Origin: a virus
Reading direction: 5' to 3' (one strand)
DNA: 14,092 bases
Virus genome (UHGV): UHGV-0124555
The position numbers were made by a program, and so were the translations under genes. The notes beneath the pieces were generated by a model that saw only the letters and a list, made by a program, of their open reading frames with translations, did no database searches and had not been told where the DNA came from. How positions within the stretch are numbered: position 1 is the first letter of the stretch; each line of letters begins with the position of its first letter. Shown here piece after piece: positions 6,640-8,200 of the stretch.

Positions 6640-6667
6640 AACCCACCGTCAGGTGGGTTTTTTGTTT
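6640..6667 (+). terminator. Rho-independent terminator after the signal-peptide gene
   Basis: Perfect 8-bp stem AACCCACC/GGTGGGTT with loop GTCA, followed by TTTTTTGTTT. The stop codon and last four codons (KKPT) of the convergent Mnt-like gene are encoded inside the hairpin and T-tract. Confidence 0.6.
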
Positions 6668-6969
6668 AGCAGTTCTCTCAACTTTTCGTTCTGCTCTCTG
6701 AACTTTTCCTGTATTTCTTTTTGCATGGCGATAACCTGGGCTTGAAGTTGAACTAGCGCATCAACATTTAGCGGAACCGAGACGCTGTTGATTTTGTCTG
6801 CTATTTCCCCAAGAGTATTTTCTGCATTCAAGGCATCTTCCAGTATCTGCACAATCTCTGAGTTCATTGATCTGCCGTTACGTTTAGCTCGTTCAGCTAT
6901 AGCATCTCGCATTCCGTCAGGAAAACGGAGGTTGAACTTGTCGTAGTCTTTTACTTGTTTTTCGGCCAT
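6649..6969 (-). CDS. mnt: Mnt-like ribbon-helix-helix (Arc/MetJ family) repressor with a C-terminal coiled-coil-like extension
   Basis: FNLRFPDGMRDAIAERAKRNGRSMNSEIVQILEDAL closely matches the P22 Mnt/Arc beta-strand and helix motif (FNxRxP ... NGRSxNSE), recalled from memory. The start is placed at ATG 6969 (MAEKQVKDYDKFNLRFP) rather than the ORF-track 6993. The C-terminal 60 aa are rich in Q/E/K/L. The gene is divergent from the arc-like gene, as in P22 immI. Confidence 0.7.
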   Translation of the reverse strand: MAEKQVKDYDKFNLRFPDGMRDAIAERAKRNGRSMNSEIVQILEDALNAENTLGEIADKINSVSVPLNVDALVQLQAQVIAMQKEIQEKFREQNEKLRELLNKKPT

Positions 6970-7076
6970 TGCAAATCTCTCAAAAAAAATCATGGTGCCA
7001 TATTGCCATATGATTTCAATGGTGGCATTATGGCCTTCATGGTGTCACTTTGGCACCAAATAAAGGAGATTAGATA
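6970..7076. promoter_or_regulatory. Divergent promoter/operator region between the mnt-like and arc-like genes (candidate Pant and Pmnt)
   Basis: Rightward candidate promoter: -35 TTGCCA (7003-7008), 17-bp spacer, -10 CATTAT (7026-7031). Leftward candidate -10 CATAAT sits on the - strand at 7027-7032. Repeats present: tandem TGCCATAT x2 (6996-7011), ATGGTG x3 (6992, 7019, 7039), and inverted pair GGTGCCA (6994-7000) / TGGCACC (7051-7057). AAGGAG RBS at 7063-7068. Confidence 0.4.
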
Positions 7077-7250
7077 ATGCAAGATACACTTTTCACTGAG
7101 CGCAAAAATATCAAACTCAACCTTCGCCTTCCATCACGGCTGAATGAAGACCTTCGCCGCCTGGCGGAAATGGACTGTATATCTCTGAACTCTGCAATTG
7201 TTCGTTTGCTGGCAAAAGGTGTTAGGGAAGAGGTGGCGAATGGTCGCTAA
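7077..7250 (+). CDS. arc: Arc-like ribbon-helix-helix repressor (57 aa; absent from the ORF track)
   Basis: Hand translation gives MQDTLFTERKNIKLNLRLPSRLNEDLRRLAEMDCISLNSAIVRLLAKGVREEVANGR*. AAGGAG RBS lies 8 nt upstream. The NLRLP beta-strand and SLNSAI helix follow the Arc pattern, and the gene sits directly upstream of the antirepressor-like gene as in P22 arc-ant. Confidence 0.7.
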   Translation: MQDTLFTERKNIKLNLRLPSRLNEDLRRLAEMDCISLNSAIVRLLAKGVREEVANGR

Positions 7251-7321
7251 AAACAGCGAAGCCCCGACAGCGGGAACTGGCGAGGCTTCTACATCAACAA
7301 ATCTGATCGGGAAATATTGAC
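7251..7321 (-). ncRNA. Candidate sar-like cis-antisense small RNA covering the antirepressor RBS and start codon
   Basis: Minus-strand candidate promoter inside the 5' end of the antirepressor gene: -10 TATACT (complement of 7328-7333), 17-bp spacer, -35 GTGAAA (complement of 7351-7356). Minus-strand terminator: stem GAAGCC (7258-7263) / GGCTTC (7284-7289) followed on the - strand by GCTGTTTTT. Predicted transcript is about 70 nt, analogous to P22 sar. Confidence 0.3.
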
Positions 7322-8200
7322 ATGAAAAGTATAGCAAAGACACAAAACGATTTCACCATCTTCAAATTCGGCGACAGTGAAATCCGCGTCATCAACAAGT
7401 GCGGTGAGCCGTGGTTTGTAGCTAAAGATGTTTGTGATGCTTTAGCTTTGACTAACTCACGCAAGGCGCTTACTGCACTTGATGACGATGAAAAGGGAGT
7501 AACTTTAAGTTACACCCTTGGTGGTGAGCAGAATTTAAGCATTGTGAGCGAATCAGGTATGTATACATTGGTTTTGCGCTGCCGCGATGCCGTCAATAAA
7601 GGTTCAGTCCCGCACAAATTCCGCAAGTGGGTAACAGCAGAAGTTCTGCCTTCAATTCGCAAATATGGCGAGTATGTGAAAGGCAAGAAAACCACAGTTG
7701 AAGAAAGAACACCGCTACGCGATGCAGTAAACATGCTGGTAGGAAAGAAAGGACTTCGCTATGACGATGCATACAATATGGTTCATCAGCGTTTTGGTAT
7801 TGACAGCATTGATGAACTTTCAATTGAACAAATCCCGCTGGCCGTAGAGTACATCCACAGGGTGGTGCTTGAAGGTGAGTTCATTGGCAAGCAAGAGAAG
7901 AAAGCAAACGAGCTTTCTGCAAAAGAAGCAAACAGTCTTGTATGGTTATGGGATTATGCCAACCGCTCACAGGCATTATTCCGCGAACTGTATCCGGCAT
8001 TAAAACAAATTCAATCGAACTATTCCGGAAGATGCTACGACTACGGTCATGAGTTTTCGTATGTTATCGGAATGGCGAGAGACGTTTTAATCAACCACAC
8101 ACGAGATGTTGATATCAATGAGCCAGGCGGACCAACGAATCTTTCCGCATGGGTAAGGCTTAAGAACAAAGAGTTGCCGCCTTCACTGCATCGCTACTGA
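7322..8200 (+). CDS. ant: Bro-N domain protein, putative antirepressor (P22 Ant-like); a KilA-N-type abortive-infection protein (BstA-like) is an alternative
   Basis: 292-aa ORF. The N-terminal about 110 aa carry the Bro-N signature ([32 protein letters not shown] ... LDDDEK). The C-terminal about 180 aa have no motif I recognise. The gene lies directly downstream of the arc-like gene and is visibly AT-rich. Confidence 0.6.

Follow-up and report, generated by a model that had tools for sequence, protein, structure and literature searches.

Three copies of one operator-like unit in the control region of a probable P22 immI-type antirepressor module of an Escherichia coli prophage

In the immI region of phage P22, the divergent mnt and arc genes, the antisense sar RNA and the antirepressor gene ant follow one another in this order, and back-to-back, overlapping sigma-70 promoters lie in a spacer of ~100 bp. 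A single Mnt operator, Omnt, of the 6-1-6 type is found just downstream of the −10 element of the rightward promoter, Pant, and a distinct 21-bp Arc operator, Oarc, is located in the Pant spacer. Mnt is tetrameric through its C-terminal domain, and the N-terminal residues of Arc and Mnt reportedly set operator specificity, a finding ascribed to Knight and Sauer in 1989. A second point of comparison is AmrZ, a chromosomal global regulator of Pseudomonas aeruginosa that stands outside antirepressor modules and binds GGC-AAAAC-GCC as a dimer of dimers (PMC3325190). In that complex a pair of guanines is read by Lys18 and the guanine across from C by Arg22 of the partner chain; the operator's A/T linker acts through groove shape (PMC3325190). 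Here we describe the 107-bp spacer at positions 6970-7076 of the viral genome UHGV-0124555, the whole 14,092-nucleotide stretch of which is referred to as the window, and compare it with these systems.

The spacer is probably the bidirectional control region of an antirepressor module of the P22 immI type, an assignment made on gene content and homology. It separates a leftward Mnt-like repressor gene (6649-6969, minus strand; 106 residues, with an N-terminal ribbon-helix-helix and a predicted long C-terminal helix) from a rightward Arc-like gene (7077-7250, plus strand; 57 residues, with the β-strand IKLNLRLP and the contact triad K13/N15/R17). Both small proteins match the Pfam family Arc, PF03869, the Mnt-like protein with 73 bits (1.4e-20) and the Arc-like protein with 22.1 bits (cut-off 20.4), and the RefSeq label of each is Arc family DNA-binding protein and nothing more. 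A Shine-Dalgarno sequence, AAGGAG, read from the sequence at 7063-7068 (plus strand) and kept in relatives, precedes the arc-like gene. After a gap of 71 bp comes ant (7322-8200, plus strand), the product of which matches Bro-N (7.5e-20) and P22_AR_C (3.6e-29) in Pfam and PHROG 245, anti-repressor Ant (1e-110). This order of mnt-like, arc-like and ant genes is that of the annotated P22 immI region. An antisense, sar-like RNA is also predicted at 7255-7320 (minus strand) from a full-length match to Rfam RF00262, with 30.2 bits (E 0.0015), under the gathering score of 43. It spans the arc-ant junction and the ant ribosome-binding site, contains two hairpins (z −4.2), and has a promoter-like site, GTGAAA-17-TATACT, at 7356-7328 inside the start of ant and a terminator-like site at 7278-7260 (both minus strand). 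The same arc-ant gap sequence occurs in E. coli PK8241 (L225, 3085-3165) next to an arc gene of another type. The proposal of an earlier note on this DNA, that the spacer is a divergent control region between two Arc-family genes, is thus borne out by PF03869 in both and by the immI-type module around them. The switch appears to be of an ordinary kind, with an unusual layout.

Repeats in this spacer are denser than chance. The octamer TGCCATAT stands in tandem at 6996-7003 and 7004-7011 and overlaps the hexamer TTGCCA (7003-7008); ATGGTG occurs at 6992, 7019 and 7039, with spacings of 27 and 20; GGTGCCA (6994-7000) and TGGCACC (7051-7057) form an inverted pair; and two hexamers overlap, CATTAT (7026-7031, plus strand) and CATAAT (7032-7027, minus strand). 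All of these had been listed in the earlier note, and all are present where it placed them. In 2000 dinucleotide-preserving shuffles of the spacer (500 for the three-copy 13-mer set), 3.1 direct 6-mer pairs are expected and 11 are seen (p 0.007), while a 16-mer in three copies at ≥12/16 identity has a p of 0.002 and the score of the best three-copy 13-mer set, 30/39, is reached in 3/500. Against the same spacer shuffles, inverted 7-mers alone are not enriched (3 vs 1.7 expected, p 0.26) and 16-nt inverted arms at 13/16 are marginal (p 0.03). For comparison, related loci were collected by searching IMG/VR with the two proteins and one genome per species with an alignment of Mnt-like N-termini; ~300 loci (L001-L306) gave 122 distinct modules with a divergent ribbon-helix-helix gene pair, and at least eight families (A-H) can be distinguished among their spacers. 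Two of the exact copies are particular to this strain: where it has the second TGCCATAT most relatives have TGCCATAC (C at 7011), and where it has the third ATGGTG they have ATGGCG (C at 7043); the second ATGGTG reads ATAGTG in many relatives (A at 7021).

The tandem octamer, the ATGGTG triplet and the inverted pair had been treated as separate classes of element. They collapse, on comparison with the related modules, into pieces of one 17-bp unit that is present three times and consists of ATGG followed by a 13-mer, in which a 5-bp A/T stretch is enclosed by two GSC triplets (the left one in S3 being GTC). Unit S1 (6992-7008) is ATGG plus TGCCATATTGCCA, with its 13-mer, GCC-ATATT-GCC, at 6996-7008; S2 (7019-7035) is ATGG plus TGGCATTATGGCC, with GGC-ATTAT-GGC at 7023-7035; and S3 (7039-7058) is ATGG plus TGTCACTTTGGCA, with GTC-ACTTT-GGC at 7043-7055, followed by CCA (all on the plus strand). 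S3 with its CCA forms a 19-bp imperfect palindrome at 7040-7058 (7/9 pairs by manual base count), and S1 is approximately the reverse complement of S2, their 12-nt arms being 92% complementary. When the 14-kb window was scanned with the 13-mer consensus, a motif derived in part from these very sites, matches with at most one mismatch were found at S1-S3 only; at two mismatches the total in the window equals chance, and the GSC-N5-GSC pattern is not enriched over the window as a whole. On either strand, a sequence in ant, TGGGATTATGCCA (7949-7961), differs from the operator 13-mer by two mismatches, a level of likeness at which the total count equals chance.

Three properties of the units weigh against reading them as operators built in this way. 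The 13-mers of family A, that of the window, are just 4/6 palindromic, and ~3.6 such 13-mers are expected by chance in 107 bp, so that the operator case is made from the direct repeats and from comparison. The GSC triplets of S1 and S2 are direct, not inverted as in the AmrZ operator amrZ1. An alternative register, with TGG elements 11 bp apart as in Arc operators, appears to fit the units equally well, and the sequence alone cannot choose between the two registers. The arrangement of TGG and TGGC also led us to consider a sigma-54 promoter, judged by the element spacing of TGGCAC-N5-TTGCW and the presence of an enhancer-binding protein. By manual count S2 and S3 have the GG-N10-GC spacing, but their match to the consensus is poor (TGGTGG-N5-TGGC); S1 misses the spacing by one base, the pattern is absent from families C to H, and the window has no activator gene. 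This candidate was rejected.

The units lie across two candidate sigma-70 promoters. The rightward one, a Pant-like promoter for arc and ant (7003-7031, plus strand), comprises −35 TTGCCA (7003-7008), a spacer of 17 bp with TG at 7023-7024, and −10 CATTAT (7026-7031). It scores 9/12 with the TG in a consensus scan and is the top plus-strand position weight matrix (PWM) match, at 11.7, with a predicted start at ~7038-7039. The earlier note had assigned the same two hexamers, and in six of the seven families scanned (A, B, C, D, F and G) the top plus-strand match lies at their position; the −35 of the relatives is usually a perfect TTGACA. Family E is ambiguous. It has an alternative TATAAT upstream, which speaks against the assignment. 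A further plus-strand match, TTGGCA (7050-7055) and GATAAT (7073-7078) at 17 bp, has a −10 that overlaps the arc start codon. A functional promoter there would start inside arc and express ant without Arc. We think this highly improbable, even with a consensus score of 10/12, a PWM score of 11.1 that nearly equals that of the main promoter, and promoter-like matches at a similar place in one family B spacer (L136) and one family G spacer (L150). Its −35 resemblance is an automatic consequence of the half-site TTGNCA, and its −10 resemblance one of the A/T-rich spacing ahead of the ATG; the match is weaker in A′, a close relative (CTGGCA, 7.3), and is not among the top matches of families C, D, E and F, and the transcript, with no arc start, would still face sar. 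The second match is probably a by-product of the half-site sequence.

The best candidate for a leftward promoter of the mnt-like gene (6992-7019, minus strand) pairs −35 TTGAAA (7019-7014) with −10 CACCAT (6997-6992) over 16 bp. It is the top minus-strand PWM match, at 9.2; an alternative −10, CATGAT (6994-6989), would give a 19-bp spacer. Relative to the rightward −35, this position (−35 at +14 to +16, −10 at −6 to −9) ranks first or second on the minus strand in 7/7 of the families scanned, with hexamers that differ by family (TTGCTG/CATAAT, TTTACG/TAGCAT, TTTATT/TATTGT, TTGATT/CATCAT, TTTACA/TATCAT and TTGTGA/TACCGT), and such conservation of position with different hexamers argues for selection on function. 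The weakness of CACCAT as a −10 counts against it. The predicted start, ~6985, falls inside a run of A at 6982-6989, which separates the candidate leftward −10 from the mnt ribosome-binding site. The run is A8 here and A7 in several relatives; as the loss of one base shifts the frame from the upstream ATG at 6993, the Mnt-like start is placed at the ATG at 6969, which sets the spacer at 6970-7076.

The earlier note points to a different layout, with −10 elements that overlap at 7026-7032. On that reading the two repressors would have two separate sets of operators, and the leftward start would be at ~7020. Both hexamers do exist, and the leftward candidate in question (7027-7056, minus strand), GTGCCA (7056-7051) and CATAAT (7032-7027) at 18 bp, reaches 9/12 in the consensus scan; P22, moreover, has separate Arc and Mnt operators. 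By PWM this candidate is only fourth (7.1 vs 9.2 for TTGAAA-16-CACCAT), however, a similar position recurs elsewhere just in the family C spacer L146 and the family G spacer L150, at low rank, and the CATAAT hexamer is CATGAT, CACTAT or CACTGT in close relatives. Given also that the three repeat classes reduce to one unit and that no element tracks the arc type, we regard this layout as unlikely and retain the leftward promoter at 6992-7019.

With the promoters so placed, S1 overlies the −35 of the rightward promoter and the −10 of the leftward candidate, S2 overlies the extended −10 of the former and borders the −35 of the latter, and S3 falls within the rightward transcript alone, at ~+5 to +17, where P22 has its Omnt. 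This geometry recurs among the relatives. An unbiased search for the best triple found three related 13-mers at ~−7, +19 and +36 from the rightward −35 in 8/8 families, and the same search found no comparable triple in P22. The start offset between S2 and S3 varies from ~13 to 24 bp across families, so no fixed phasing is apparent. The sites equivalent to S3 in families C, E, F and H are near-perfect palindromes, the most perfect among the sites of each family; the S3-equivalent of family C is TGTCACGGTGACA, and P22 Omnt is GTCCACGGTGGAC. One family C spacer (L073, IMG/VR contig 3300048927_000085) carries ~five 8-bp repeats resembling ATAAAGCT between the mnt-like start and S1, a run not found in other family C members. 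That the repeats have no regulatory role, and arose by chance or as a by-product of promoter hexamers, is a reading to which we give very little credence. The inverted 7-mers alone are not above chance and several exact copies are strain-specific, but the direct-repeat and triple statistics speak otherwise, eight families of divergent sequence keep the three-site geometry, and the repressor N-terminus and the sites covary.

This covariation indicates that the sequence of the sites follows the N-terminal arm and β-strand of the Mnt-like protein. Modules with the strand DKFMLRFP (K/M/R), found in relatives from Enterobacterales, Rhodobacter and Duganella, have sites of the form GTCAC-N-GTGAC; ERFTVRMP (R/T/R) goes with GCATCA-N3-TGATGC, DRFNIRLP with CCAA-S-TTGG, EKFVVRFP (K/V/R) with GGCAT-N-ATGCC, and the N-terminus of the window's Mnt-like protein, MAEKQVKDYDKFNLRFP, with TGSCAT-W-WTGGCC. 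Natural exchanges provide the strongest evidence. Three loci, L061, L070 and L072, combine the window's Mnt-like N-terminus with an unrelated arc (VKTTLRYP), and their S1 and S2 17-mers are identical to those of the window; the same arc type is also paired with two other site families. Conversely, the arc type of the window, Arc-1, is also present in family B, where the N-terminal sequence of one Mnt-like protein is MSKYPSQMQDKFNLRFP and the sites, GGCCAACTTGACA, TGTTAACTTAACA and TGTTAACTTGGCC, differ from those of family A at most positions. Family C spacers are near-identical whether the arc is SFQLRLP or KFMLRLP, and relatives freely exchange the Mnt-like protein's C-terminal domain. In partial Mantel tests, which, like the pairing statistics below, are descriptive, the loci being related and mosaic and not independent samples, S2 gives 0.62 with the Mnt-like N-terminus and 0.20 with the Arc-like one, the strongest value of all segments for the Mnt-like protein. 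For S1 and S3 the correlation with the Arc-like N-terminus is about as high, which weakens the case that all three units follow the Mnt-like protein.

The earlier note took the repeats as operators for the two repressors. They are good operator candidates, but the proposal holds for the Mnt-like protein only, since nothing in the spacer tracks the Arc-like one. Across Arc-1 (families A and B), Arc-2 (C, D and F), Arc-3 (some C) and the E-type arc (A, E and H), no motif was found that tracks the Arc-like protein; the promoter elements and the Shine-Dalgarno sequence are all that is shared across the arc types compared. A right-hand element, TTGGCMCCAAA, was considered as Arc-1-specific and was rejected, as it is also found in L061, next to an E-type arc.

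An operator of its own for the Arc-like protein could nevertheless be sought in the outer octamers, TGGTGCCA at 6993-7000 and TGGCACCA at 7051-7058, which bracket the promoters and would leave the inner 13-mers to the Mnt-like protein. These two octamers are exact inverted copies of each other, the non-symmetric centre included. Families A and B, which share Arc-1, both have TGG-NN-CCA at the two ends, with a centre that covaries (TG/CA in A, GG/CC in B, where the octamers are TGGGGCCA on the left and TGGCCCCA on the right), and the correlation of S1 and S3 with the Arc-like N-terminus would fit as well. The covariation that holds between A and B is broken elsewhere, however: L061 has TGGTGCCA on the left and TGGCCCCA on the right with a different arc type, and L070 and L072 lack the right octamer. 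The octamers are 58 bp apart in A and 55 bp in B, and hence in no fixed helical phase, and they overlap S1 and S3, to which they may simply belong. We therefore consider such an operator decidedly unlikely.

Most likely, its contact triad being that of its partner, the Arc-like protein would act on the same units and not on an operator of its own. A more specific version, which we put forward only tentatively, is that the two repressors have no separate operators and both read the same three units through shared K/N/R residues. The window's Arc-like and Mnt-like proteins carry an identical K/N/R triad, and partners share their contact triad in 11 of 40 distinct Arc-like/Mnt-like pairs, against 2.7 expected from random pairing; matched pairs of K/N/R, of K/M/R and of Q/I/R are examples, and they come from several bacterial orders. 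If this version is true, nothing but oligomeric state and timing would distinguish the early shut-off of the antirepressor, by Arc, from the late one, by Mnt, unlike in P22, and the exchange of arc among modules without change of the spacer would be explained, as would triad sharing between partners above random. A difficulty for it is that families A and B both have K/N/R and Arc-1, yet their S2 sites agree at only 5/13 positions; the triad alone therefore does not appear to set specificity, and Arc-1 could not read both sets equally.

The β-strand of the Mnt-like protein, DKFNLRFP, holds the contact triad K11/N13/R15, and the N-terminal domain is, by its sequence matches, an Arc/Mnt-type ribbon-helix-helix. 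Among solved structures it matches pArc, a designed Arc variant (1U9P, 5.9e-9), AmrZ (3QOQ, 5e-8, residues 8-53), P22 Mnt (1MNT, 1.4e-7, residues 7-51) and also native Arc, all PDB matches being confined to residues 7-54; the Arc-like protein gives a weak PDB match to P22 Arc. Chain G of PDB entry 9PIO, a 79-residue 'Arc family DNA-binding protein', also matches the Mnt-like N-terminal domain (E 6e-5). AmrZ, with the strand DKFVVRLP, is among the closest solved relatives of this domain, and at the positions equivalent to the AmrZ contacts the protein encoded here carries Lys, Asn and Arg, the middle residue being Val in AmrZ and Asn here. The amrZ1 operator consists of two GGC half-sites and a 5-bp A/T-rich linker, and the units of the window have the same triplet spacing and linker; they differ in that the triplets are inverted in amrZ1, whereas those of S1 (GCC..GCC) and S2 (GGC..GGC) are direct and S3 has GTC..GGC. 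Relatives of family E, with the strand EKFVVRFP, show the same architecture in GGCAT-A-ATGCC. AmrZ oligomerises further, beyond the dimer of dimers on its operator, through its C-terminal domain. Beyond residue 54 the Mnt-like protein has no PDB match and no sequence similarity to the C-terminal coiled-coil tetramerisation domain of Mnt, which counts against the mechanism proposed below; the single-sequence AlphaFold2 (AF2) model, of low overall confidence (predicted template modelling score, pTM, 0.38), has one long helix at 69-102 with a predicted local distance difference test score (pLDDT) of ~80.

From this arrangement we infer how the switch may work. The promoter TTGCCA (7003-7008)/CATTAT (7026-7031) would drive the arc-like gene and the sar-overlapped ant rightward, and a weaker promoter, most likely TTGAAA (7019-7014)/CACCAT (6997-6992), would drive the mnt-like gene leftward. 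In a lysogen, the Mnt-like protein would bind each unit as a dimer of dimers, with the C-terminal helix mediating oligomerisation. S3 is the likely primary site, because it touches the region of the rightward start only, takes the place of Omnt and, in families C, E, F and H, comes closest of the sites to a perfect palindrome. Filling of S3 (and S2) would shut off arc and ant and leave the mnt promoter free. At higher concentrations of the Mnt-like protein, S1 and S2 would also be filled and, since these two units cover elements of both promoters, transcription of mnt would be limited as well, giving a homeostatic self-control of the kind seen at lambda OR. After infection, when the Arc-like protein is made, it would most likely act on the same units as the Mnt-like protein.

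The likeness to lambda OR lies, by inference, in three related sites, presumably of graded affinity, across two back-to-back promoters, with repression of the lytic side at low repressor levels and self-limitation at high levels. It does not extend to the proteins, as CI and Cro are unrelated helix-turn-helix proteins, and we found no evidence here for cooperativity or activation. With P22 immI the locus shares the divergent mnt-like and arc-like genes, a predicted antisense sar-like RNA and an ant with P22_AR_C, in the same order, predicted overlapping back-to-back promoters in a spacer of about the same length, and a candidate Mnt operator of the 6-1-6 type just downstream of the rightward −10. 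Where P22 has one Omnt and the distinct Oarc, three related units are present here, and the separate Arc operator in the promoter spacer, a defining feature of P22 immI, appears to be missing: none of the units has TAGA-type boxes, and no motif specific to Arc was found. The leftward −35 of P22 adjoins the Pant −10 and its leftward −10 adjoins the Pant −35 (offsets +33 and +10), whereas the best leftward candidate here stands at +16 and −6, and the two promoters probably interlock differently. The contact triads of the two repressors are unlike in P22 (H/N/R and Q/N/R) and identical here (K/N/R). Finally, the present cassette is found among the tail genes of lambdoid and myovirus-type prophages.

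The window derives from an E. coli prophage, the 622-bp stretch searched, 6642-7263, being 100% identical to the chromosome of strain ES3, and the genes that flank the spacer are tail and baseplate genes of the contractile-tail type. This same stretch, comprising the mnt-like gene, the spacer and the arc-like gene, is 97.6% identical in lambdoid Stx-converting phages, where it is flanked by the tail genes L and K and the ant after it is a different one. With its differing tail-gene settings and differing ant genes, the cassette appears to behave as a mobile, mosaic insert. The borders of the homology are sharp (6642-7263 in the window, 7001-7622 in L001). A terminator-like hairpin with a T-run follows the upstream tail gene at 6640-6659 (plus strand), and its stem contains the mnt-like stop codon (6649-6651). 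The label 'partition protein ATPase' (PHROG 795/2685) was set aside, as P22 mnt bears the same label in GenBank and there is no ParA-type gene nearby. Our literature search, which did not cover subscription journals, found no paper characterising this E. coli cassette.

The general picture of immI regions is unchanged by these findings, and a specialist would not be surprised by the function proposed. The cassette is present in 294 of 5426 complete E. coli genomes (~5%), many O157:H7 Stx-converting prophages included; as it controls an antirepressor there, its setting could bear on how prophages are induced and toxin is released. Repressor N-termini and operators have changed together across the related modules, a natural library that may be useful for deriving the rules of ribbon-helix-helix recognition, and the matched variants could be used to build orthogonal repressor-operator pairs.

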